Assembly: GCA_963707635.1 (NCBI GenBank)
Contig: OY970173.1
Coordinates: 2,912,001 to 2,976,000 of the forward strand
From: Candidatus Latescibacterota bacterium
GTDB taxonomy: Bacteria > Krumholzibacteriota > Krumholzibacteriia > WVZY01 > JAKEHA01
Reading direction: 5' to 3'
Length of the DNA stretch: 64,000 bases
Shown: piece after piece, positions 1-14,437 of the stretch
Numbering within the stretch: position 1 is the first letter of the stretch
How the letters are laid out: every line of letters begins with the position of its first letter
Notes under the pieces: generated by a model
The model's input: the letters and a program-made list of their open reading frames with translations, nothing else
Databases searched by the model: none
Told to the model about the DNA's origin: nothing
Program-made: the position numbers and the translations under genes

Positions 1-3000
1 ATGCGCACCAGGTGCTTGTCTCCCGGGCGTTCCCACCGGTACTCGTAGCCGCCGTCGACGAAATACGACCCCGGCCGGCGCGCGCCCAGGCCCGCGGACA
101 GCGATAGGTATTCTTCGTCTTCGCGACCGGAGAGCGAGGTAAACGTCTCGAAGCCGAGAGTCGCGCTAGTCGCCGGTCCCAGCCGGAGCCTCTGCCGAAT
201 CCCGCTCACCGCACCCATGCGCGCGTCGTCCGCCGCGCGGTCCATCGCGTAGCGCGTGTAGGCCTGGGTGCCGCCGGGCGTGGTTCCTTCGACCCCGGCC
301 GTAATCTGATTGGTCGAGGGGCGGCCGCCCGCCGTGAGGTACTCGTGTGTCGCGATGGCGCGAACGCGCTTCGCGAGCGGCACTGCCAACACGGTCTTCA
401 AGCGGTTCGGGTAGTCGTCGACCACCTGGTCGCCCACGTTCTGCTCCCATGTGGTGGAGATCCCGGCGGTGCCGCGATTGCCGACGGTGATGCCGGTGAG
501 CACCAGGACTCCGTTCGCATCCTGCTGCGGCTCGTCGTGGCGCGCGAAGCGCAGCCCGGCCGACATCTCCAGCAAACGCCGGCGATAGTCGAGCGTGGCC
601 CGGGCGGTCTCGCGCTTTTCGTCGGTGCGCTGGAGTTCGTGCGTGTAGCCGTCGGCATTGAGCGCGAGCGACGGGGACAGGGCGAGGCGGCCGTCGAAGC
701 CCGCCTTGAGGCTCGCGAGCTCGCTGTCCGCCCCGCGGAACGACGGATTCACGAAGCCACCGTCGACGCGCCGCAGGTACATGTCGAGCTTGGAGGCCCC
801 GCGTTGCGCGCCGGCGCCGACCTTGTACGCGTTGCCGTTGCCCGTGAGGTCGTCTTCGCTGTGCGCGAACTCGCCGCTGAATCGAGCGGCGCCCAGACGC
901 GCGTCCCCGTCCACACCGAAGAGCGAGTAGCCGGGCGTGTCGCCCCCGTTCGCCACTGCGGTCACGCCGGCGCGATATCGGCTCCCCTGCACGACGTCGC
1001 CGCGCATGCCGTACAGGTACGCGCCGCTCACACCGGTCTCGGTCTCGTAGGTCACGGCAACGAAATTCGGGTTGAGCTCGCGGTCGGTCACCGCCACCGG
1101 CTCCATGAAGAGAATCGAGCCGTCGTAGGGGTTGATCGTGTAATCGCGCCGGCGAATCATGACCCGGGCCTCGAGGACTTCTTCCGTCTGGTAGCGATCG
1201 CGCGTCTCGACGATCACGCGCTCCGAGTTCTCGACGATCGGGGCGCTCGACAGGTAGTAGAACCCGCTGGTGCCGTCGGCGGGCATCTCGTCGGTGCGCG
1301 TGACGAAATCGGTTTCGGTCACGAACGCGCGCACGCTGTTCGCCCCGCTGGTGAGCGAAGCCGACAACCCCGTCACCACCTGGTGGTAGGTGAGAAACTC
1401 CCCGCGATCGATCGGGGTGGTGAAGTCGCCGTAGCGCAGGTACGATTGTTCGCGGTCGATCGACACGTAGTTGCCGCCGCGCGCGGGCGCGGCGTAGTGC
1501 ACCGACGACGCGTCGCCGTAGATCGGATACTGCTTCTCCGGATCGGGTTGCTTGAGCAACGGGTCGTCGTAACGCTTCTTGGTGTCGAGCCGGGCGGTGA
1601 CCTGGACCCCGCCCGGCGCGGCCCCCTGGACGAAGAGGCGCGACTCGGCTTCCACGTCGAAGCCATCGTGGTAGTTCGCCACCCCCTGCCCGCTGCCGTC
1701 GCCGCGCGTGTCGTACGCACCCATGGTGACGTCGACGATGCCGTCGGCCAGAAACGGACGCTCGGGGTTGACGAATACGACCTCCGTCTCCGCCCGCATT
1801 CCGTCCATCTCCACCGCCACCCGCCCACCGCCGGTCGCGTGCCGTGGCTTCAGGACCAGATTCACGATTCCCTCGCTGGTGGTCGCCTGCAGCCCGCGCT
1901 CGTCGGGCCGCGCGTCCGCGAGCGCGACCAGGTCCGCGCCCTCCGCGACCGTGACGACGATGCCGTCCATCACCGGCAGCCCGAACCCGTCGCGCACCGC
2001 GAAACGCAACGTGGTCGCGGTGTGGCCGTCCGCCGGAACCAGCGCGCGCGCGTCGAGCGGCACGAGCTCCGCCGGTTTCGACGAAAGCGCGACCCGCACG
2101 CTGTCGGACGCCTCGCCTCCGCGCAGCATGGTGGCGTGCGCGATCAGGTCATTCCAACCCGCGCGCACCCGCACGCCGAACCAGGTCGTGGTCTCTTCCT
2201 GGTGCGCGACGTCCACCGTGTGCTGCCCGACGCGGTCCTCGCCGACCAGTTCGTCGTTGACGCGCAACTCCACGCGGCTCCCGAGCGGATGGCGGACACG
2301 CACTGCCACCTGGTCCCGATCCCGCACGACCAAGCCGTCGTTCGGTTCGAGGATGGTGACGAGGCTGGCAGCCCCGGGTGGCGCCGGAGCGGGGTCCCCG
2401 GCGGGGACCAGGGCGATCTTCGCCGGGGCCGCGATTTCGGTCCACGAGAGCGCGTCGAACACCGCGCCCGGCGCGATCGCCGCGGTGCGCACGCCGGGTC
2501 GGACGACGGTCGTGTGCACGGAGCCCGAGTCGCCCGCCGCGGAATCGACCAGGGCAATCGCCGCGGTGACGTCGCGAACCAGGTGCGTATCCGGAGTCGC
2601 CGCGGTGAATGCGACCTGGCAATCGATGGCCCGTCCGCGTCTGAGCGACTCGAAGCTGAAGACGCCGCCGTCGGATGGCAGCGGGACCCGGTCGAGAAGC
2701 GCGCTGACGGTCACGTCCCCGAGCCCTTGCGGAACCTCGACCCGGAGGGTGCCGCGCTGGGTGTGTTCCGAGGTGGTGGTGAATCTCCAGCGCACGGTGG
2801 TGCGCGAGGAATCCGGCAACACCGAGAGATCGCGGACCGCGTGGCCGACGCGCAGCGTCGGGTCCGCGCCGTCGGCGGATGGCGGAATGAAACTCACCTC
2901 GACGCGGCGGTTGAAGCTGCGCCCGTCAGGCGTACCGTTGCCCGCCACCGGCCGGGTGTCCCCGTAACCGCGCACGACGATCCGGTCTCCGTCCACCCCC

Positions 3001-5138
3001 ATCGCGACGAGGGCGTCGCGCACCGCTTCGGCGCGCGCCACCGACAGCTCGTAGTTCGACGGGAAACGCCTGCTGCGCATCGGCGTGTTGTCGGTGTGGC
3101 CTTCGACCAGAGCCGCCCAGCCCGGACGGTCGAGCAGAAAGGCCGCCACCGGTCGCAGCCCCCGGTCCGCACCGACGACCAGCGACGCCTGGCCGAAGTC
3201 GAACTGCGAGCTTGGCAGCGTGAACTCGCCGAGCCGCACCCGTCGCGCGACGCTGACCCGCTCTTCGCACGCGAGCAGCGCGGTACGCGTGAGCGGCGGC
3301 ACCACCGGTTTGCGCAGCGGGAAGGCGACGCGCGCGTGGGCCGGAGCGATCAGGTGCACGAGACGCTCGTTGGGCCGGGGGGCGTGGCCGTCGCCCACAG
3401 CGGGTTCCACCAGTTCGACGCCGGCCGGGAGCGTTCCCTCGTCGAGGCGCACCAGGCGGTAGCCCTCGAACACGTGCGGAATCGAGAAGACTCCCAGCGA
3501 GTCGGTCACCGCGTACTCGCCGCTCTCGAGGTAGACCGAGACGTTCCCCACCCCGGGCTCGCCGGGGTCGCGGTCCCCGTCGCCGTCGTCGTCGATCCAC
3601 ACGTCACCGAGCAGAAAGCCCTCGATGCCAACTTCCTCGTTGTCGATGCGAATGGCGGCGACCACCGGCGCCGTTTCGACCGGATCGCCGGTCACTGCGC
3701 TGCCACGCGCCACCCCCGACACGCTGGCCCAGCCGTTGGGCTCGCGGCTGTTCACCGCGAACTTGACCGAGGTGGTGCGCGTCTCGCCGGGAGCCAGCGA
3801 CCCGACGGCCCACGAGAGCTGGTTCCCCGACCACGCCACCCCGCCCCCGGAGAGAAAATCGAGCGCCGGCGGCACCGACTCGGCGACGCGCACGTTGTCG
3901 ACGCGGATCGAGTCGGTGCGGTTGGTCGCGGTAACCACCATGGTCACGACGTCGCCCAACGACGCGGTCGCCTGCCGGAACGTCTGCTCGAGGCCGATCA
4001 TCGTGCGCGGATCGGGCACCGCCGCCAGGGCGAGCCGGCACGTCGTCCGGTTCGTGACCAGCGTGTCGAGGCGCGACTGCGCGGTGAAATCGAACGCGCG
4101 TATCGCGCCGAGCGCTGTGCGCAGCGGCGTCCCCGGGCTCGACACGACGAGGCGAAGCGACTTGATCTCTCCGGGCGCGAACGCGCCCACCAGGAACTTC
4201 CCGGGTTGCGGAGCCGGCGGGAACGGCACCCCGTTCACGTCCGTGCACACGACGCCGACGCCCGGCGGAAACGCGGCGGACGCGAATACCACCACGCTGT
4301 CGGCGTCGCCGGCGTTCTCGATGTCACCCGCGAAGGTCACGGTGTCATCCAGCACGCCGATGCCGACGGTTGACGCGTCGTCGGGCGATCCCTCGCCCCC
4401 GGGCAACGCGCGCGGGTTTCCCGCCGGCCCGAAGAACACCGCGGACACGAGCGCGCGACTGGTCACACGCACCACGGTCGCATCCGTCACGGGGGCCTGC
4501 GGCGCGAAAGCGGCGGCCGCGACACCGGGATCCCACGCGGAGGTCGCGCGCAGCTCGACGTACGCATCTCCCGCCGGGGCGGGCAGCACGAGTGCGACAT
4601 CCACCGGTGTCGAGAGACCCGCGCCGACCACGAGGAACGACGGGTTGTCTTCGCCCGCATCCAGCCGCCCATTCGCGTTGGCATCGCGGAAGAAGATCAC
4701 CGTCGCGGGCGAGATGGTCGAGGGTGGGAGACTCGTGGTCGACATCGCGACCGAGTCGGGCGCGTTGCCGAGGTTGTCGAGCGACAGCCGGCAGTAGACC
4801 GTATCGAACGGAGCCGCCTGCAGCGCGTACGCGGGCGTTGCCACCGTTCCCGGCGGAGTGATACGCAGGCCAAAGATCGTGAGTACGGGCGTGGAGACGG
4901 TGTTCGAGCCCGTCGCATTCACGTTCCCGGTGTCGGTGAAGACCGTCTGGGCGGTGTTCCGGATGTCGGTACCGCCGGGTGTGACCTGAGCGTGTGCGGG
5001 TTTCGAAGGCCAAAAAGCCAGCACGAACAGCAGCGCGAACAAGACGTAACGCGTTGCAGAAAAACGAAAAACGGCGAGTCCCCCCGCCGCGTTTACTGCC
5101 CGCCGCCAGTCGAAATTCTGCCGCGCTAGAGCCTTCAT
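1..5138 (-). CDS. Very large outer-membrane protein (>=1712 aa, 3' end outside window): signal peptide, N-terminal TPGGTDIRNTA extension, Ig/DUF11-like domains, SdrD-B-like domain, OmpA-C peptidoglycan-binding domain, C-terminal putative beta-barrel
   Basis: Hand translation from ATG 5138 (MKALARQNF...FALLFVLAFWPSKPAHA-QVTPGGTDIRNTA); the frame is still open at position 3 (...KHLVR). Motifs: GDVWIDDDGDGDRDPGEPGV (SdrD-B-like), VEGHTDN...SNYELSVARAEAV...GYGDTRP...NRRVEV (OmpA-C), YPIYGDAS...YGDF and alternating beta-strand patterns downstream. Absent from the ORF track because there is no stop; the + strand ORF 345..4373 is its antisense shadow. Start codon uncertain. Confidence 0.85.
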   Translation of the reverse strand, partial: MKALARQNFDWRRAVNAAGGLAVFRFSATRYVLFALLFVLAFWPSKPAHAQVTPGGTDIRNTAQTVFTDTGNVNATGSNTVSTPVLTIFGLRITPPGTVATPAYALQAAPFDTVYCRLSLDNLGNAPDSVAMSTTSLPPSTISPATVIFFRDANANGRLDAGEDNPSFLVVGAGLSTPVDVALVLPAPAGDAYVELRATSAWDPGVAAAAFAPQAPVTDATVVRVTSRALVSAVFFGPAGNPRALPGGEGSPDDASTVGIGVLDDTVTFAGDIENAGDADSVVVFASAAFPPGVGVVCTDVNGVPFPPAPQPGKFLVGAFAPGEIKSLRLVVSSPGTPLRTALGAIRAFDFTAQSRLDTLVTNRTTCRLALAAVPDPRTMIGLEQTFRQATASLGDVVTMVVTATNRTDSIRVDNVRVAESVPPALDFLSGGGVAWSGNQLSWAVGSLAPGETRTTSVKFAVNSREPNGWASVSGVARGSAVTGDPVETAPVVAAIRIDNEEVGIEGFLLGDVWIDDDGDGDRDPGEPGVGNVSVYLESGEYAVTDSLGVFSIPHVFEGYRLVRLDEGTLPAGVELVEPAVGDGHAPRPNERLVHLIAPAHARVAFPLRKPVVPPLTRTALLACEERVSVARRVRLGEFTLPSSQFDFGQASLVVGADRGLRPVAAFLLDRPGWAALVEGHTDNTPMRSRRFPSNYELSVARAEAVRDALVAMGVDGDRIVVRGYGDTRPVAGNGTPDGRSFNRRVEVSFIPPSADGADPTLRVGHAVRDLSVLPDSSRTTVRWRFTTTSEHTQRGTLRVEVPQGLGDVTVSALLDRVPLPSDGGVFSFESLRRGRAIDCQVAFTAATPDTHLVRDVTAAIALVDSAAGDSGSVHTTVVRPGVRTAAIAPGAVFDALSWTEIAAPAKIALVPAGDPAPAPPGAASLVTILEPNDGLVVRDRDQVAVRVRHPLGSRVELRVNDELVGEDRVGQHTVDVAHQEETTTWFGVRVRAGWNDLIAHATMLRGGEASDSVRVALSSKPAELVPLDARALVPADGHTATTLRFAVRDGFGLPVMDGIVVTVAEGADLVALADARPDERGLQATTSEGIVNLVLKPRHATGGGRVAVEMDGMRAETEVVFVNPERPFLADGIVDVTMGAYDTRGDGSGQGVANYHDGFDVEAESRLFVQGAAPGGVQVTARLDTKKRYDDPLLKQPDPEKQYPIYGDASSVHYAAPARGGNYVSIDREQSYLRYGDFTTPIDRGEFLTYHQVVTGLSASLTSGANSVRAFVTETDFVTRTDEMPADGTSGFYYLSSAPIVENSERVIVETRDRYQTEEVLEARVMIRRRDYTINPYDGSILFMEPVAVTDRELNPNFVAVTYETETGVSGAYLYGMRGDVVQGSRYRAGVTAVANGGDTPGYSLFGVDGDARLGAARFSGEFAHSEDDLTGNGNAYKVGAGAQRGASKLDMYLRRVDGGFVNPSFRGADSELASLKAGFDGRLALSPSLALNADGYTHELQRTDEKRETARATLDYRRRLLEMSAGLRFARHDEPQQDANGVLVLTGITVGNRGTAGISTTWEQNVGDQVVDDYPNRLKTVLAVPLAKRVRAIATHEYLTAGGRPSTNQITAGVEGTTPGGTQAYTRYAMDRAADDARMGAVSGIRQRLRLGPATSATLGFETFTSLSGREDEEYLSLSAGLGARRPGSYFVDGGYEYRWERPGDKHLVR

Positions 5139-5152
5139 CGCATATAACACGT

Positions 5153-5205
5153 TCGGCCGGCGCACGCGGGGGAGCCGTGTGGGCTCCACCCGCATGCGCG
5201 GCCGA
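5153..5205 (-). terminator. Strong intergenic stem-loop between the fibre-subunit gene and the outer-membrane protein gene
   Basis: Pairings tcggcc/ggccga, gcgca/tgcgc, gcggg/cccgc and ggagcc/ggctcc around a 5-nt loop; the C/A mismatch becomes a G-U pair in the minus-strand RNA. No clear U-tail, so it may be a stabiliser or attenuator. Confidence 0.55.
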
Positions 5206-5234
5206 CGTAAGGGGCCGCTATCGAAAGAAAGCGG

Positions 5235-7935
5235 CTACTGAATCCGGACTGTGAACCCGACCCCGGAGGTCGAGCTCGCACCGGCCAGGAGACTCCCCGT
5301 GAACACCCAGCGCACGTTGGTCACGTTCGCGTCGTATCCCGCCGGAGCTCCCCCGCCGCCGCTCGCCGGCGCGTAGGTCCAGGTGGCTCCGCTGTCGTCG
5401 GAATACTCGATCGCGATGGCGGTGACCGACGCCGGCGCCGTGCCGCTCGTCGCCGAACCCACCTGGAATTGCGTCCAGGTCGGAACCGCGTCGTAGATGG
5501 CGATCGTCGTGAGCGTCGAGCTGCCGAGGTTCTGGTAGTCCACGGTGTATGCGAGATCGGTCCCCGGCGCCTGAGCGCCCGCCGGGCTCACCGCCTTCGT
5601 CAACACCAGGTTGCCCGCCACGATGGTCGTGACGTCGGTGGCGTTGTCGGAGGCGAGGGTGACCTGACCGGTCGCCGTGAGCACCCCGATCTCGACCGTC
5701 CCCACCGTCGCCCCGGCCGGCACCGTGAGGCGCGCGGTCACGCTCGCACTCGCGCCCGGCGCGAGAGTCACGCTCGAAATCGGCGTGCTCGTCACGTCGA
5801 GGAACACGTAGCTCCAGCCCTGCGAGGAGACGTAGGTCAGGTCGAAGGTGTCACCGACATTGCCGTTGTTGGTCACCGTGTGCGCATACGTGATGGTCCC
5901 GCCGGCGGTGGTGTTGCCCGCGTTGTCGGGGTCGAAGAGCACCGACGCCAGCGTGTTCACCGTCACCGTGTTGGCGATGGTGTCGCTTTGCGTCGCGTTG
6001 ACCGTCGACGTGGCCGTAAACGAGGTTCCGTTGACGCCCGGCGCGGTGCCCGCGGGCACCGCCACGCGCGCGATGAGGTTGGTCTCGGCTCCGGAAGCAA
6101 CCACACCCGTCGAGGTGATCGGCGACACTTCGCCGGCGTCGAGGATGCCGTTGCCGTTCGCGTCGAGATAGAACACGACCGTCCAACCCGCGGGGACGGA
6201 CGAGGACAGCGTGAAGTTGTCGCTCGAACCGCCGCCGTTGATCACGTCGAGCGCGAAGTCGACCGACGCGCCCGGGTTGGTGTTCTGATTCACCGACGCG
6301 TTGTTGGTGGTTCCCGCCGCGCCGTCATAGTTGCCGATGTCCACCGTCGCGGGCAGTACCGCGTCGATGCGATCGGTGGTCAGGTTGTCCTCGGCCGGGG
6401 TGTTCGCGGACTGCGCGCGCACCACGGCGGCGAACGGGCCACCGGCCCCCTGCGAACCGGGAATGACCACCCGCACGACGATGTCGATCGACGCTCCCGT
6501 CGCGAGCGGGCCCACGTCGACGTTGCCGTCGAAGTCGGAATCCGAAAGCGGCGTGATGCCGTCATTGTGATAGAACAGCACCGACCACGAGCCGGGCACC
6601 GTCGACGAGCCATCGAGCACCACGTTGACCGCGTCGTTCGTGTTGCCGTCGTTGCGAATCGTGTTGGTGAAGTCGACCGACGTGTTGGCGTACGCGCTGG
6701 CGACACTCTGCAGGTCGTCGTCGTAGTTCGGCGGCGTTCCGGCGTCGGGGACGCCGGCCGGGCCGATCACCACTCCCGCGAGGATGCCGACGGTCACCGG
6801 CGCGTTGTTCGACGTGACGATGGTCGGGTTCGGCGTCACCACGTTGTTGTCGACGTAGGCCAGCGCCGCGGTGTTGTTCAACACGCCCGGCGTCATCCCC
6901 GCGACCACCGTGACCTGGTACGAGAACGAGTAGCTCTGCCCCGGCACGATGGCGCCGTTGGTCACGTACGCCACCGCGATGTCGCCGAAACCCGCCGCCA
7001 GCGACCAGTTCCACGTCTCAGGGCTCCCGGCGGTCGAGCTTCCGCTGGGCAGGTACAGGACCGTCCCGCCCGCGGGCGAGCCCGTCGGCGCCCCGAAGAC
7101 CGGGAGTGGATTGCCCGAGCCCGGATTCAGCGGGATCACGTCGTACATCAGAACACCCGTGAGGGCGACCGACCCGACGGTGACGCCGTTGGCGTTGTTG
7201 GTTCCGGAGTTCGATGCCCGTGAAGGTGTAGCTGATCTGGTCGCCGTCGTAGACCAGCGCGGGGGCACCCGTGAGGTTGGCCGTCATGACGGCGTCGTCC
7301 ACCACCGTGGTGCGGTGGTAGTTGCGCGTATCGATCTGACCCGCGTCACCCACGGACGTGCCCTGCACGCCGACGTAGGCGAGCTGGCCCGCGGTCGCGG
7401 TGCCCGGCACCGCGTAGGTGACGATAAGGCTCACCGACGTGCTGGCCGCGACCGGACCGAGGACGCCCGGTACCCCGCCGACGCTGATCGCCGGCTCGCC
7501 GCCGTCGACCACGCCGTTGCCGTTGATGTCGTGATAGATCGACACGTTCGCCAGCGCGATGGTCATGGTCGTGTTGACCGCATCGACCAGCGGCGCCAGC
7601 GTGTAGCTGTCGTTGTCGTTACCGGTGTTGGTGAGCGTATAGCTGTAGAACAGCGTCTGTCCGCCGATCGCGTTCTGGCTCATCGCCGGCGTGACCGGTG
7701 GCGTCTCTCCCGAATCGTCGGGAAGGATCGAGATGCCGTAGACCGGCAGCACCACTGTAATGACTTCGTTCGAAAGCGCGGTGTAGCTGTTGCCGACCAG
7801 GTCCTCGTAGGTCGCGGACGCGCGATTGCGAATCTGCGTCCCCGCCGGCGTCGTCTGCGCGAACGCAGCCGCCACGGAGAGCACGAGCACGAGGGTCAGG
7901 ACGAGCGGGAGGATCAGAAGGTGTCTGGTTTTCAT
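5235..7935 (-). CDS. Secreted multi-Ig-domain DUF11 (conserved repeat domain) protein, ~899 aa after correcting a +1 frameshift at 7217-7219; candidate fibre subunit
   Basis: ORFs 7018..7935 (signal peptide MKTRHLLILPLVLTLVLVLSVAAAFA-QTTPAGTQIRNRASATY) and 5235..7268 join as ...QISYTFT(A)SNSGTNN... if one G of ACGGGCA is removed. Repeated Y/FxxTxxNxGNxxDxxxL modules, DxNGNGxxDxGE Ca-binding-type loops, two DUF11-like domains. SD AGGAGG overlaps the upstream stop codon. Confidence 0.85.
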
Positions 7936-7947
7936 CTTCGGTTCCTC

Positions 7948-8433
7948 CTACTTGACCGTGGCCCGGTACGAGAACGTGATCTCGTCTTCGGGCTTCAGGC
8001 CGCCGGACAGCGTCCAGCGAATGTGGGTGATCATGTCCGGCGTCGCGTCCGCCCAGACCTCACGACCGTCGGCCGCCGCTTTCTTGAAGCGAACGGGCCA
8101 GGCGTGGAAGGTCTTGCCGCTGTCGATGCTGAACTGCACCGAACCTGCAGCCGGAGCCTTCGCGGTCTTTTCGACGTACTGGACGCCGGCGGGAACCGGG
8201 TCGACGATTGACACGTTGTGGACGGCCTCGGCGCCACCGTTGGCGTACGTCAGCCGGTATTCGATGACGTCCTGCGGACGGGCTTCGTCTGCAGGCAGGT
8301 AGACTTCCTCGCCGCGCTCGCCGACGATGACCTTCCGGGCTTCGATGGTGCCCGTGACAGGACCGGCGGCAGTGGCAGCGAGCGACGTGATCAGTCCGCC
8401 AACAAGGGCGAACAGGAAGAAAACGCGACGCAA
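7948..8433 (-). CDS. Small secreted single DUF11-like domain protein (161 aa), C-terminally truncated domain
   Basis: TTG start at 8433 with AGGAGG 7 nt upstream; signal peptide; PQDVIEYRLTYANGG...VSIVDPVPAGVQYV...THIRWTL...FSYRATVK-stop. Confidence 0.85.
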   Translation of the reverse strand: MRRVFFLFALVGGLITSLAATAAGPVTGTIEARKVIVGERGEEVYLPADEARPQDVIEYRLTYANGGAEAVHNVSIVDPVPAGVQYVEKTAKAPAAGSVQFSIDSGKTFHAWPVRFKKAAADGREVWADATPDMITHIRWTLSGGLKPEDEITFSYRATVK

Positions 8434-8845
8434 GGTGGAACCTCCTGAGTATCGAGAAGCCCACGCATCGGCGCGGGCGCACTCCTCCCATGCAAACCCG
8501 CGCGTCGGGCGCAGGCGCAACTTCTCGCGGGAGCCCGGGGGCAAGGGACGTTCCAGTCGTGGCCGGAAAGGGCGGGATGTTCCCGATGGAAGCGGATGAG
8601 GGAGGAATGTGGCGTCGCGGCGCGGCTTACGCGCGGTGACGGAGTGGCCGTCGGTGCCGCCACCGGGCGCATGACGGACTATCGCGCCCGCGAATGGTTG
8701 TCACTCCGCAATGCGGGCGCAGGGGGCCTTGCAATGTGCAATTCTTCCCAGTCGGGGGTGGCGCGCCAGGTGAGTCGGGACCAGCACGTCGTTCTCCGAG
8801 GAGCGCCGGGGGTCAACCTACAATATTCTAACGGCTTATGAATTG

Positions 8846-8875
8846 TTGAAAATTATACATAGCCTGTCCTATATT
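8846..8875 (+). promoter_or_regulatory. Sigma70-like promoter for the two-component operon
   Basis: TTGAAA-N18-TATATT in an AT-rich patch; ATG 8882 follows 6 nt after the -10 box. Confidence 0.5.
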
Positions 8876-8881
8876 CTGCAC

Positions 8882-9961
8882 ATGCCGGGCTCGCCTTCCA
8901 AACGCTGGCAGGTGGTCACACTCGTGGTGATCGGCGCCGCCACCGTATCGTTCCACTACGGCTTCTTGCTCCCTCGATCCATCGGGCATGGCAGCCTCGT
9001 CCACGTCATCCACGGGCGCCTGTGTTATGTGCCCATCATTCTGGCGGCGATCTGGTTCGGGGTACGAGGCGGACTCGCGCTTTCGCTCTCGATCACGGCG
9101 CTCACCCTGCCCTACCCGCGCCTGCGCGGGATTACCGACCACCACACGTTGATCGGCGAATACACCGAAATGGTGTTCTACGTGGCGATCGGCCTGATGA
9201 CCGGTGTCCTGATCGAACGCCAGTGGCGCGAGCGGGCGCGCGGCGAAGCCCTCCAGCGCGAGCTCGCGCGCCGCGAGCGCCTCTCGTCGCTCGGGCAGAT
9301 GGCCGCCGGCCTCGCGCACGAGATCAAGAATCCGCTCGGGTCCATCCAGGGCGCGGCCGAGATTCTGGGCGACGACGCGCCGGCCGATTCCCGCAGGCGG
9401 GAGCTGTTCGAGATCCTGCGCAAGGAATCGAAGCGGCTCGGGACCGTGGTCGACGACTTTCTCACCTTCGCGCGCCCGCGTCCGCTGTCGCTCTCTCCGC
9501 TCGACCTCGGTGCGGTGGCGGAGCGCGCCGCCGCGCAGATGAACATCGACGCCTCCGCGCGCGGCATCACCATCGAGCTCCAGCGCGCGCCCGACCTGCC
9601 CCGGGTGGCCGGCGACACCGAGCGGCTCCACCAGGTATTCTTGAATCTGCTCTTGAACGCGCTCGCCACCAGCGCGGACGGGGGCCGGGTGGTGGTGTCC
9701 TCGTTTCCCGCCGAGCGCGACGGCGCCGCGTGCGCCGCCGTGTCGGTGCGCGATTTTGGCTCCGGCATTGCGCCCGACGCACTCCCGCGCGTGTTCGACC
9801 CGTTCTTCACCACGCGGGAAAACGGGGTCGGCCTGGGCCTCTCGATATCGCACACCATTGTGCAGGAACACGGCGGCTGGATCGACGTCGACAGCGCGCC
9901 GGGTGCCGGCACCACGGTCACCGTCGTCCTCCCCGTCGATCGCACTCGCCATGGCGCATAG
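8882..9961 (+). CDS. Membrane sensor histidine kinase (NtrB/ZraS-like)
   Basis: Several TM helices, H-box LAHEIKNPL, N-box QVFLNLLLNA, DFGSGI, FDPFFTT, GVGLGL. Confidence 0.9.
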   Translation: MPGSPSKRWQVVTLVVIGAATVSFHYGFLLPRSIGHGSLVHVIHGRLCYVPIILAAIWFGVRGGLALSLSITALTLPYPRLRGITDHHTLIGEYTEMVFYVAIGLMTGVLIERQWRERARGEALQRELARRERLSSLGQMAAGLAHEIKNPLGSIQGAAEILGDDAPADSRRRELFEILRKESKRLGTVVDDFLTFARPRPLSLSPLDLGAVAERAAAQMNIDASARGITIELQRAPDLPRVAGDTERLHQVFLNLLLNALATSADGGRVVVSSFPAERDGAACAAVSVRDFGSGIAPDALPRVFDPFFTTRENGVGLGLSISHTIVQEHGGWIDVDSAPGAGTTVTVVLPVDRTRHGA

Positions 9962-11303
9962 TCGCATCCTGCTCGTGGATGACGACGAGAGCATCCGCAA
10001 GGTCCTCGGCTATATGCTCGAGGAGGCCGGCTACGCGGTCGAGTCCGCGCCGGGAGCCGACGCCGGGCTGCGACTCGCGGCCGAGCGGCGCCCCGACCTG
10101 GTCTTGAGCGACATCAAGATGCCGGGCAAGGACGGGCTCGAGCTGTTGCGCGAGCTCCGGGCTTTCGATCCGTCGATCCCGGTGATCATCCTCACCGCGT
10201 TCGGCACGGTGGGGACCGCCGTCGAGGCGATGAAGCACGGCGCGTCCGACTACCTCACCAAACCGATCGCGCGCGACGATCTATTGCTGACGGTGGCGAA
10301 GACGCTCAAGCTCCACCGCCTCGAGGCGGAAAACGAGGATCTGCGGGAGACGCTCCGCGACCGCTTCCGCTTCGAGAGCATGGTCGGGCTTTCGCCGGCG
10401 ATGACAGAGGTGTTCGCCACGCTGCGCAAGGTGGCGACCACCGAAGCCACCGTGCTAATTACCGGAGAGAGCGGGACGGGCAAAGAGCTCATCGCGCGCG
10501 CGATCCATTTCAACAGCCCGCGGCGCTCGCAGCGCATGGTCACGATCAACTGTGCCGCGATTCCGCACGACCTGCTCGAGAGCGAGCTGTTCGGTCACGT
10601 GCGCGGGTCGTTTACCGGCGCGATTCGTGACAAAGTCGGCAAGTTCGAACAGGCGCACGGCGGCACGCTCTTTCTCGACGAGATCGGGGCCACGCCGCTG
10701 GTGCTGCAGGTGAAGCTGCTGCGCGCCCTGCAGGAGCGGGAGGTCGAGCGGGTTGGCGGCGACGCGCCCATCCAGGTCGACGTGCGCATCGTCGCCGCCA
10801 CCAATCGGGCGCTGGCGACGCTGGTCGCCGCGGGCGAATTTCGCGAGGACCTCTTCTACCGGCTCAACGTCGTGCCGGTCCGGGTGCCGCCGCTGCGCGA
10901 GCGCGCGGGCGACCTCCCGCTCCTGGTCCGCCACTTCCTGGCGAAGTTCGCCGACGGCAAGGTCACCCTGACCCCGGAGGCGCTCGCGGCCCTCGAGCGT
11001 TATCGCTGGCCGGGGAACGTCCGCGAGCTGGAGAACTTCTGCGAGCGCATGGCGCTGATGCGCTCCCGCGACGTCATCGACGCCGCAGCCGTCGCCGCCG
11101 AGCTGGCGACGCTGGAGCGCGAGGCTCCGGCGGCGATCGGAGCCACCCTGCACGAAATCGAGCGCACCGCCATCGTCGAGGCGCTGCGCGCCAGCGGCTG
11201 GAATCGGTCCCGCGCCGCCCGCCGGCTCGGCGTCGCGCGCCACATCCTGCTCTACCGCATGAAGAAGTTCGACATTCGCGACGAGGGCGAGTCGGTGCGT
11301 TGA
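9951..11303 (+). CDS. Sigma54-dependent response regulator (NtrC/ZraR family; REC-AAA+-HTH)
   Basis: ILLVDDD...DIKMPG receiver; [32 protein letters not shown]-terminal Fis-type HTH. Confidence 0.95.
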
Positions 11304-11313
11304 GGGTGGTGGC

Positions 11314-11398
11314 GGGATGCACTCCCTCTACCGCCGTCCTCCCGCGCACAAAATTGAAATGCGCGGCTGCGGATTGGCGGTGCGAGGGAGTGCATCCC
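11314..11398. repeat. 85-nt long hairpin / REP-doublet-like inverted repeat
   Basis: Perfect 15-bp inverted repeat GGGATGCACTCCCTC (11314-11328) / GAGGGAGTGCATCCC (11384-11398), with further internal pairing (accgcc/ggcggt, ccgcgca/tgcgcgg). Confidence 0.7.
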
Positions 11399-11418
11399 AC
11401 CTTGAGGCAGAGCCCCTC

Positions 11419-11434
11419 TGGCAACCGCGGTGCG
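11419..11434 (+). promoter_or_regulatory. Possible sigma54 -24/-12 promoter
   Basis: TGGCAACCGCGGTGCG has GG-N10-GC spacing; 70 nt upstream of ATG 11504 and directly downstream of a sigma54 activator gene. Confidence 0.35.
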
Positions 11435-11503
11435 TTCGTGCTAACCTCCCCAACTTGCGCGCGCGGCAGCGTGCGTGATCGTGTTTCCAGCCAGGGAGTG
11501 AAC

Positions 11504-14437
11504 ATGCGGCGCGCAGCGATCATCGCGGCATCTCTTCTTGCGGGCGCCGTCCCCGTCCACGGCGCTGACTACTTCCAACAGTTCGTGCATACCACCATCC
11601 GGGTGACACTCGACACCGAGCGCAAGTGGATTTCGGGCACGGAATCCATTCTCTACGTCAATAACTCGCCGGACACGCTGCGCCAATTCTATCTGCACCT
11701 CTATCCCAACGCCTTTCGCGACAACGACACCGCGTTCATGAAGAACCGGAACCGCCAGTACAACTGGACGCTCCTGGGCCTCCCGGATGCGAACCGAAGC
11801 TGGCTCGACCTTTCCAACGCGCGCGTGGACGGGACGCCGGTGGACGTGCGCGTCGACGACACCATCGCGAGCATGGCGTTGCCGCGGCCGCTCGCCCCGG
11901 GCGACTCCATGCGGGTCGAGTTCGCGTTCGACGGGAAAGTGCGCCAGGCGTTCGACCGCGCCGGCTACCGCGGCGACCACTACGACTTCGCCCAGTGGTA
12001 CCCGAAGGTGGTCGTGTACGACGAGCGCGGGTTCCACCCCGACAAGTTCCAGGCCGGCGAGTTCTACGGCGAATTCGGGACCTTCGACGTCCACATCGAG
12101 CTGCCGCAGCGTTTCGTGGTGGTCGCGACCGGCGTCGTCGAGAGCGGCGACCCCGGATGGGACTACAACCCGCCGCACCGGAAGCGCGGCGCGAAGACGG
12201 GCGCCGGCAAGACGCCGCCCGCGTCGGGGAGCAAGACCATCCACTTCCACGCCGAGAAGGTGCACGACTTCGCGTGGTGCGCGGATCCGACCTACGTCGT
12301 CCAGGACACGCTCCTCGACGGCATCGAGATCCGAAGCGCGTATCGGCGCCGGAGCGCGTCGACCTGGGAGGACTCGACCCTCGCGCACGCGATCCGCGCC
12401 GTCACCTGGCTGAACCGTCGCGTCGGCAAGTACCCGTATCCGCACATCACCGTCGCCGAGATGTTGCGTATGGGCGGGATGGAATACCCGATGCTCGCGA
12501 TGGACGGCCGCGCGACCGAGGGGCTCGCCTTGCACGAGATCGGCCACATGTACTTCTACGGGATACTAGCCAACAACGAGCGCACGGAGGCGTGGCTCGA
12601 TGAAGGCTTCACCACCTTCCAGACCCGGTGGTATCAGGAGCGGCACTACGGCCCGTGGGGCGACACCAGCCGGCGGAACTGGTACCAGCGCATCACCCCG
12701 CAATACCGGCTGTGGGAAGAGTACCAGCGGGACATCGTGGACCTGCACCGCCGTGGTTACGGCGAGCGGGTGTCGTACCGGGCAGAGGACTACCTCCACT
12801 CGTACCGGGTGAACGTGTATCAGAAGGCGGCCCTCGTCGTCCGCGCGCTGCGCTTCGCCGCCGGCGACGACGCGTTCGACCAGATTCTGCACCGCTACTA
12901 CGATGAGTGGCAGTTCAAGCACGTGAACGAGGCGCGTTTCCGCGCGGTGTGCGAGGACGTCGCGAAGCGCGACCTGTCCCGCCAGTTCGAGCAGTGGCTG
13001 CACACCAAGAAGGCGGTCGACTACGCGCTGACGCGCGTGCACTCGACGCCGGCCGCGAACGGCGTGTCGACCGACGTGGAGATCCAGCGCATCGGCGAGC
13101 TGTACTGTCCGATCGAGGTCGCCTTCACCCTCCCCGACGGGCGCGTCGAGAAGCGCCGCTTCGACGCGCGCGATCGCACGATCCGCCAGAAGGTGGAGTT
13201 GCCGGCAAAGCCGGTCCGAACCCAGATCAACCCGGACAACGAGATCATGGATATCGATCCATCGAATAACGTGACGCCCCGCCAGCGCGACTTCCAGATC
13301 GACTGGCCCAACAACTACTACTATCCCGCCGACGCCTACCAGATCCGCCATCGTCCCGCGATCTGGTACAACGACGTGGACGGCGCGAAGGTCGGCTACC
13401 ATTTGTCCGGGAGTCTCCAGGGCTGGAAGCACCGCGCGAACCTCGGCGTCTACTACGGCGTCGAGAGCGGCGAAACGGATTTTTCAGCGTCGCTGGACGA
13501 GCCGCTGCGCCTGCTGGGGAGCAACGCGACCCTGCACGCCTCGGGCTACAAGATGGAGGGCCGCGCGGACTGGAAGCTCGACCTGCGCCTGACCCGACGG
13601 TCGCATCTGCTCGACCCGCCCACGCACGAGTTGTTGATCGGCTACGGATACCACGAATTGCGCGACCCGCGGTACCTGACCAGCCCGGAGATCTACGACA
13701 CGCTGCAGGCGGACTCCGGCCCGTACTTCGGCTACACCGTCGACCCCCAGCTCGACATCGCGTCGATTCGCTTCGAGGCGAATCTGACGATGGGAAACCA
13801 GTGGTTCGCGGGCGAATACGACTACGAGCGTTTCGCGGCGAGTCTCACCCTGCAGTCGCGACCGAGCGTCGTGAAGGTGGATGCGCGACTGCGGGGGTTC
13901 GCGGGGTTCGCGGGAGGCGGCACCGCCACCTCGCGGAAGTTCAACCTGGCGGGGGCGGGACCGCTGCGCGCCGAGGAGCGATTCTGGCTCCGCTCACCGG
14001 GCGCCGTGCCGGAGGGCCTGCACTATCTGGAGCCCGGCGACGGCAACCTGCGCGGATACGCGGCGGGGACGTTCGGCGTGAACCAGCTGATGGCGCTGAA
14101 CGCCGAACTGGGAGGTCCGCTCGCGCTCCCGGGAATCAAGAAACTGCAGAAGTGGATCGGAACCCCGTCGCTGTACGGGTTCTACGACGTGGGATGGATT
14201 TTCGACAGCGTGAACCCGATCTCGACGAGCGCGCGGGTCGGGGCGCTGGTGGACGGCGGAATCCTGGACGACGTGCTCCAGGACGCGGGACTCGGGATTC
14301 GCTCCGCGGTGGCGTGGCCGTTCTGGAACTTCACCTGGCGTTTCGACGTGCCATTCTATGTAACGAATCCGGAAGTCAACGCCGAGAGCGAAACCATCGA
14401 CTGGCGGTACCTCTTCAGTCTGACGGCGACGTTCTAG
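11504..14437 (+). CDS. Secreted M1-family zinc metallopeptidase with C-terminal putative outer-membrane beta-barrel region
   Basis: Signal peptide; GGMEYP, HEIGH-x18-E (WLDEGF), YQKA; C-terminal ~370 aa of amphipathic strands with NLRGY motif, ending YLFSLTATF. Confidence 0.85.

Follow-up and report, generated by a model that had tools for sequence, protein, structure and literature searches.

The window, that is, the whole 64,000-nucleotide stretch of DNA analysed here, holds a gene (B) whose predicted product seems to carry one part of an Ig-like domain at its N-terminus and the remainder of the same domain at its C-terminus. The question raised by this locus is whether the two parts join, whether they would do so within one chain or between chains, and whether the junction would be covalent. 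The features of gene B on which the answer depends are given below; residue numbers follow P0001, a homologue that is 91% identical to the window's B, has the same donor stretch, and served as the reference for both numbering and folding.

5235 to 7935, minus strand: gene B, predicted shaft subunit of about 899 aa, with a signal peptide, a donor hairpin, five Ig-like domains and an acceptor; frameshifted near 7215
7858 to 7935, minus strand: signal peptide of B, residues 1–26, ending in A-F-A (sequence; helix 8–21 in the model)
7744 to 7857, minus strand: donor hairpin, residues 27–64, predicted second-last and last strands of a CLIPPER/CnaA domain (conservation, complex model, fusions and SpaD register)
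7825 to 7827 (AAT), minus strand: Asn37, predicted isopeptide partner, present in 116/116 close and 77/79 distant homologues, assigned by its probable register
7214 to 7216, minus strand: one extra base that shifts the frame of B (comparison with relatives)
6780 to 7296, minus strand: internal complete DUF11-like domain, with Leu in place of Lys (7273–7275) and with Asp (7140–7142) and Asn (6873–6875) kept
5238 to 5615, minus strand: C-terminal acceptor domain, residues 774–899, without the last two strands (Pfam DUF11 E 2.6e-4, below the cut-off; conservation; model)
5595 to 5597 (AAG), minus strand: Lys780, predicted nucleophile, in 116/116 close and 72/79 distant homologues
5490 to 5492 (GAC), minus strand: Asp815, predicted catalytic acid, in 116/116 close homologues; Asp in 72 and Glu in 5 of 79 distant ones

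Gene B starts with the ATG at 7935 and encodes the mature N-terminus QTTPAG, the Gln codon of which occupies 7855–7857 on the minus strand; Ala26 is found in 114 of 116 close homologues. In this assembly, the 5′ and 3′ halves of B lie in different frames, a defect that the first-pass annotation missed, although the split domain and the residues that it described were borne out. The extra base near 7215 was located by comparison with relatives, from which rows L004 and L005 were left out because of their wrong orientation. Related contigs of three runs (two samples) do not have it, and it is thus an assembly error or a private mutation in the window; the B copy of this genome would work only in the former case. 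Intact relatives of B measure 897–904 aa, and the close set comprises 116 of the 120 listed homologues (402 found), each of 880–910 aa, after the exclusion of four shorter sequences, including the window's own fragment. The source names of the B homologues point to Candidatus Krumholzibacteria/Latescibacteria, and of 61 related genomes, counting that of the window, 38 contain a B match. B or C also lies in two frames or pieces in G003:C375, L034, L039 and P0395/P0400, which reflects either assembly errors or phase-off alleles.

The first-pass annotation gave the codons of Lys, Asp and Asn the positions listed above, let the C-terminal domain stop at the equivalent of YQVTV in the internal domain (GFTVRIQ and the stop, 5235), saw no Lys at the first-strand position of the internal domain, where Leu stands (7273–7275), and counted five Ig-like domains between the two halves; all of these readings hold, the last by the strand pattern of the full-length model. 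Among the 116 close homologues, 35 different C-termini occur, all but one lying at most three residues from the YQVTV-equivalent strand, and 89 of these 116 mature proteins contain no Lys other than Lys780. A more distant set came from 6566 representatives (50% identity): of the 150 best, 88 have a length of 740–1130 aa, and 79 of these 88 combine a donor at the start with a truncated acceptor at the end. The Asn is present in 77 of the 79, the Lys in 72, and an Asp or a Glu in 77. The acceptor of B reaches 21.7 bits against PF01345 (cut-off 24.6) and covers profile positions 2–61 only; its chain ends before the Asn strand, and the Asn is located 743 residues upstream. Judged by sequence, the split of a CnaA-type domain across the chain ends of B is real and strongly conserved, and the predicted Lys-Asp-Asn triad in the CnaA register is present only when donor and acceptor are combined.

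The proposal that the N-terminal peptide supplies the part missing from the acceptor gains support from conservation, natural fusions, the register of SpaD D2 and the complex model. A family profile of 72 homologues gave one PDB sequence match, domains 2–3 of SpaD (4HSQ, E 0.0018), and placed the Lys, Asp and Asn of the internal domain on 4HSQ chain positions 8, 45 and 120, which have the same spacing as Lys187, Asp224 and Asn299 (the residue offset was worked out in this analysis). The donor profile matches the tail of the internal domain weakly (E 0.22), with Asn aligned on Asn. In 54 other proteins, all 16 donor-like stretches past residue 100 directly follow an acceptor-like domain, so that 16 of 121 internal acceptor-like matches are followed by a donor, compared with about 0.8 expected; the tails of the remaining 105 are below the donor threshold or badly placed. 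The SpaD register and the fusions together point to the donor as the second-last and last CnaA strands, and to Asn37 as the probable bonding residue. Asn56 was rejected for this role, because it aligns with the last-strand motif and not with SpaD Asn299.

Further searches of the PDB returned little. Single-sequence searches with both halves of B yielded 0 matches, the CLIPPER structure 9IFR was not matched by any PDB sequence or profile search here, and the matches of the donor profile were short, fell on unrelated repeat proteins and were judged to be chance. The acceptor profile matched only Asp-box stretches of sialidases and lectin-like proteins; Asp-box-like motifs occur in the acceptors themselves (SDDSGATW in B, at about 5380–5403 on the minus strand, and SIDSGKTF in A) and are the source of these weak sialidase matches. 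A Foldseek search with the full-length model returned generic multi-Ig proteins in its top 50 ranks (TM-score by query at most 0.21, identity at most 13%), with no solved relative among them.

The complex prediction that had been suggested as a check docks the donor (residues 27–66) in the groove of the acceptor (residues 772–899) with a score of 0.91 (best control 0.00), a mark that is reached by 116 of 157 solved complexes and by 2 of 215 mismatched pairs, although these counts are only rough with the alignment used. Contact agreement between runs is at least 98%, and the partner pLDDT is at least 91. Strand 39–43 contacts 810–814, strand 53–56 contacts 778–780, and Leu778 contacts residues 39 and 41. 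The listed interface includes each of Lys780, Asp815 and Asn37, but the Lys780–Asn37 pair is not among the best 25 contacts; in the model, the contacts of Leu778 would put Lys780 near Asn37. Since the two partners are halves of a known fold, the docking may succeed through their resemblance to CnaA domains of solved structure. The full-length model (pLDDT 89.6, pTM 0.69) consists of the hairpin, five Ig-like domains and the acceptor; its donor confidence is 87–95, the linker 771–774 is the only mature segment under pLDDT 50, and domain 5 is the weakest. A donor modelled so confidently in a single chain may indicate ring closure, perhaps strained. The covariation between donor and acceptor is weak and noisy (173 sequences, effective number 54), with a mean z of 0.44 over 25 predicted contacts (rough p 0.016) and 0 of the top 25 pairs among them, and it was given no weight.

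The argument for chemistry, as opposed to folding, is carried by Lys. In the internal domain, the Lys position is occupied by Leu or Phe in 116/116 close homologues and by Lys in 62/71 distant ones, while the Lys-less domain of the close homologues keeps Asp in 116/116 and Asn in 115/116. Because Asp and Asn persist even there, only Lys argues for a bond; its loss from the internal domain indicates that the fold can do without Lys, so that a Lys still kept by the terminal acceptor points to a bond.

The first-pass annotation recognised the split domain of B and missed its four-gene context. The gene order is A-B-C-D, with a small acceptor-only protein (A), the shaft (B), a donor-only barrel protein (C) and an acceptor-only protein (D); A, C and D pass the PF01345 cut-off.

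8540 to 8555, minus strand: sigma-54-type −24/−12 promoter-like site upstream of A (sequence motif)
7948 to 8433, minus strand: gene A, a 161-aa exported acceptor-only domain, with Lys (8332–8334) and Asp (8200–8202) kept here
5148 to 5209, minus strand: GC-rich RNA hairpin between B and C (z −7.8)
1 to 5138, minus strand: gene C, donor-only, running past the window start to G000:C1:2911385; mature chain of 1867 aa, presumed start codon at 5138
G000:C1 2911385 down to about 2907426, outside the window and after C: gene D, 1319 aa, with a C-terminal acceptor

Twenty of the best-matching related loci, which are kin and not independent, were examined; A-B-C is present in 20/20, and a readable D end in 16. 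Gene C comprises a donor hairpin (Asn 4956–4958), Ig domains, DUF11, an SdrD-B-like domain, an OmpA domain and a predicted large outer-membrane barrel. The last 800 aa of C have no Pfam match, and its C-terminal region has 37 alternating segments against 19 ± 3 in alignment-based shuffles, as for a large barrel. The nearest named Atlas clusters of this barrel region (window 1–1790, minus strand) are Porin_4 (0.88, 33% of members) and SprA_N (0.87, 79%), both leads only, and its first part, which is the most conserved across phyla, may be a plug. At the donor position of C, the 20 related loci divide into 7 with Asn, 11 with Ser and 2 with Gly; the residue is Asn in the window and in 10/10 copies from other phyla, L083 and L093 included. 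The acceptor of D keeps Lys and Asp in all 16 readable ends of the 20 related loci, and Lys in 7/7 from other phyla.

Gene A behaves differently. Lys and Asp are both present in the window copy and in 100 of 120 close homologues, and one or both are missing from 14 of 20 related loci (19 aligned, one read directly) and, by differing substitutions, from 13/13 copies of other phyla, two of which are close kin, one from a second cluster and one poorly aligned. Such repeated loss would suit a protein that holds donor hairpins reversibly or caps them non-covalently, and A is likely, on its sequence, to be one or the other. The Lys and Asp kept in the window's lineage sit badly with a reversible role there, where A may be a covalent cap; its Lys and Asp and the C Asn co-occur in the window's close kin. 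Covalent A–C pairing as a general rule was rejected, since the C Asn is present in 10/10 copies from other phyla and both A residues in 0/13.

The sigma-54-type site upstream of A recurs in 17 of 20 related loci (0.67 expected). A sensor kinase and a sigma-54-dependent response regulator are encoded at window 8843–11303 (plus strand) and transcribed away from the operon; an activator motif was seen inside 6 of the 20 related loci, and 9 genes of this kind occur in the genome, so that a link to the operon's promoter is no more than possible. Further on, window 11300–14437 (minus strand) contains a long ORF with an HEXXH metallopeptidase-like motif and a barrel-like C-terminus. A strong hairpin (z at most −2) follows B in 20 of 21 loci and in 7 of 10 from other phyla, compared with 3/19 (other phyla 1/9) after A and 1/18 (other phyla 2/10) after C, imperfect controls in that they are mostly coding sequence. 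The hairpin after B is likely to be a transcript end or a stabiliser that raises A and B over C and D, and, by analogy with other pilus operons, it suggests that B is made in excess.

Pairing between molecules had originally been favoured on the number of intervening domains; donor-only and acceptor-only partners, a natural concatemer and the retention of B Lys where C has no Asn now support it better. C only donates, and A and D only accept; pairing between molecules is therefore built into the operon. The concatemer, P0285 (3865 aa), is a single unreplicated sequence made of B-like units that are 43% identical to each other; its junctions are complete Lys-Asp-Asn domains without signal peptides, one of which is spanned by Pfam DUF11 (profile 16–98). 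P0285 also starts with a free donor and ends in DUF7933 domains and a dockerin-like stretch, and its searches against the PDB matched only dockerins. B keeps Asn, Lys and Asp in 20/20 related loci, in 13 of which the C donor lacks Asn. In five Ser-type genomes, a non-exhaustive search, which missed C itself in two, found no near-full-length donors other than B and C. With no Asn in C and no further donor found, the Lys of B has only the Asn of B as a partner, which fits a chain or a ring and not a single spacer.

On balance, B is probably the shaft subunit of a four-gene surface fibre, D-(B)n-C, in which hairpin donation would be locked by a Lys780–Asn37 isopeptide bond. In this mechanism, the subunits would be exported through their signal peptides, and A would reversibly hold, or cap, the free donor hairpins. 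D would form the tip, behind which several copies of B would be added, the N-terminal hairpin of one B completing the C-terminal CLIPPER domain of another, and the isopeptide bond would form by itself with Asp815 as the catalyst. The hairpin of C would end and anchor the chain, covalently where its Asn is kept, as here, while the barrel and OmpA domain of C would serve as an outer-membrane base and possibly as the exit pore. The product would be D-(B)n-C with n of at least 2.

The length of B, which alone is already six domains long, also agrees with a short fixed stalk D-B-C, a fibrillar adhesin made in pieces with covalent links, a single B spacer and no B–B bonds. Several operons of other phyla have two B paralogues, as in an ordered chain, and the C donor keeps its Asn here and in those ten other-phylum copies; however, B Lys would be left without an Asn partner in the 13 of 20 loci with Ser or Gly in C and is nevertheless kept in all 20, the hairpin after B suggests an excess of B, and P0285 has its B units in tandem, which together make the stalk an unlikely reading. 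It is still harder to credit that the hairpin of B completes its own last domain to give a covalent ring or a circularly permuted monomer, since C, with a donor only, and A and D, with acceptors only, have to pair in trans, the fused junctions run head to tail, and the model is poorest in the linker before the acceptor and in domain 5; what a ring does account for is a B triad without partners and the confidence of the single-chain model over the donor.

The bond itself might be dispensed with if complementation were non-covalent only, as in chaperone-usher pili, and the triad structural or vestigial. Asp and Asn do persist in the Lys-less internal domain, and many lineages have lost the Asn of C or the Lys or Asp of A; against this, Lys has been lost where a bond seems unneeded (the internal domain and A) and is kept in B, and D has it at each of the 16 ends that could be read among the 20 related loci, and in 7/7 from other phyla. 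This reading is considered the least probable of all.

The proposed fibre resembles several known systems. According to the available text on CLIPPER/DUF11 (PF01345, PDB 9IFR), this domain has a CnaA-like Ig fold with Lys715, Asp748 and Asn806 and, like B, combines a first-strand Lys, a catalytic Asp about 33–35 residues on and a late-strand Asn (PMC12617251). CLIPPER domains are described there from surface proteins of Gram-negative bacteria, one of which has an anchor of the OmpA type, and their bond lies within one chain of tandem stalk repeats, whereas the B system splits the domain across chain ends and genes; the terms "donor strand" and "complementation" do not appear in the available part of that paper (PMC12617251). 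SpaD D2 of Corynebacterium diphtheriae (4HSQ) is likewise a CnaA domain, with Lys187 and Asn299 on its first and second-last strands and Asp224 as the catalyst; unlike in B, the bond, as far as the accessible text describes it, is intramolecular, and the pilus is polymerised by sortase (PMC4014117). B, A and D have no sortase-type C-terminal sorting signal with membrane anchor, and each ends at a beta strand.

A functional parallel is BsaA of Clostridium perfringens, a member of the TasA family, in which, in the part of the source at hand, an N-terminal donor Asn locks to a receiver Lys through an autocatalytic isopeptide bond, giving oligomers that resist SDS and heat, with mutants tested (10.1101/2024.11.04.621531). 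B is predicted to lock its donor Asn to an acceptor Lys in the same manner, with Asp instead of Glu. BsaA differs, by the same account, in its TasA fold, Glu catalyst, single short donor strand (residues 28–38), small single-domain subunit, SipW peptidase, monoderm host and lack of a barrel, and "DUF11" is absent from the available text (10.1101/2024.11.04.621531); no TasA/camelysin or SipW family matched the four operon proteins. B thus works like BsaA by prediction and is built from CLIPPER, and it is a member of neither as defined. The archaeal thread protein Saci_0406 similarly polymerises head to tail by donor strands, with its subunits joined by isopeptide bonds, and a putative cap gene lies next to its own; it is, however, a different, archaeal protein, in which Asn57 bonds to the N-terminal amine of subunit n+2, as given in the accessible part of the source (PMC9715654). 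CryoSeek TLP-1 fibres (PMC11494351) and haloarchaeal tafi (PMC11821415) were set aside as parallels, both being described in the available texts with single-strand donors and no isopeptide bond.

The general layout of tip, shaft, barrel and helper is shared with chaperone-usher pili. These diderm pili (type 1/P) have a tip with a C-terminal acceptor, a shaft with an N-terminal donor, an outer-membrane barrel and a small periplasmic helper. By model and sequence only, the N-terminal donor of B would likewise complete the incomplete Ig fold of a neighbour, with two strands and not one. Chaperone-usher pili are, in contrast, non-covalent, with a one-strand donor and single-domain pilins, and in them the chaperone covers the groove of the acceptor, where in the B system it is the donor that A would cover (in part, background in the accessible parts of PMC11821415 and PMC9715654). 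No usher or PapD family matched the operon proteins, and A matches DUF11. Exchange-and-lock is therefore already known from BsaA and the archaeal threads; a split DUF11/CLIPPER or split-CnaA fibre in diderms was not found in the literature covered, which consisted mostly of titles and the starts of abstracts, with subscription journals largely missing.

Among 301 genomes of the class to which a Granulosicoccus record belongs, 7 gave strong B matches, as did 3 of 201 genomes from the phylum of an Opitutales record, and the gammaproteobacterial and verrucomicrobial loci examined have the same gene order and types. Allomeiothermus silvanus, which can be cultured, has a homologue of 916 aa. The look-alike clusters in the Atlas come most often from Deinococcota, Pseudomonadota and Acidobacteriota, as leads only. 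In L077, L085, L086 and L088, C is flanked on its two sides by B-type genes that differ from each other, possibly ordered adaptor and shaft subunits. Beside its full operon, L088 has a second small cluster (424–3641, minus strand) with an A-like gene and two short frames, one of 434 codons with donor and acceptor and one of 377 codons with an acceptor only; the cluster offers a much shorter shaft candidate. The chances are about even that these loci together represent an undescribed multi-phylum class of diderm pili, defined by an enzyme-free covalent polymer of approximately 900-residue subunits joined through a split CnaA domain, by a very large barrel protein of its own, which also provides the terminating donor, and by an inverted chaperone that shields the donor and not the groove.

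Textbooks describe covalent polymerisation of pili for Gram-positive bacteria, where it depends on sortase. If the proposal is true, a covalent fibre that needs no enzyme and has an outer-membrane base of its own would add a class of pilus to the diderms, and it would give a function to many entries named "TIGR01451 repeat protein" (6566 representatives match at E up to 0.001, some of them with a different architecture). It would also show how adhesin stalks made of a single chain can turn into pili and back, P0285 being an intermediate. Together, the donor of 38 residues and the acceptor of 126 form a candidate protein-ligation pair, and the family as a whole would, if the proposal is true, constitute a natural library of tag/catcher pairs.
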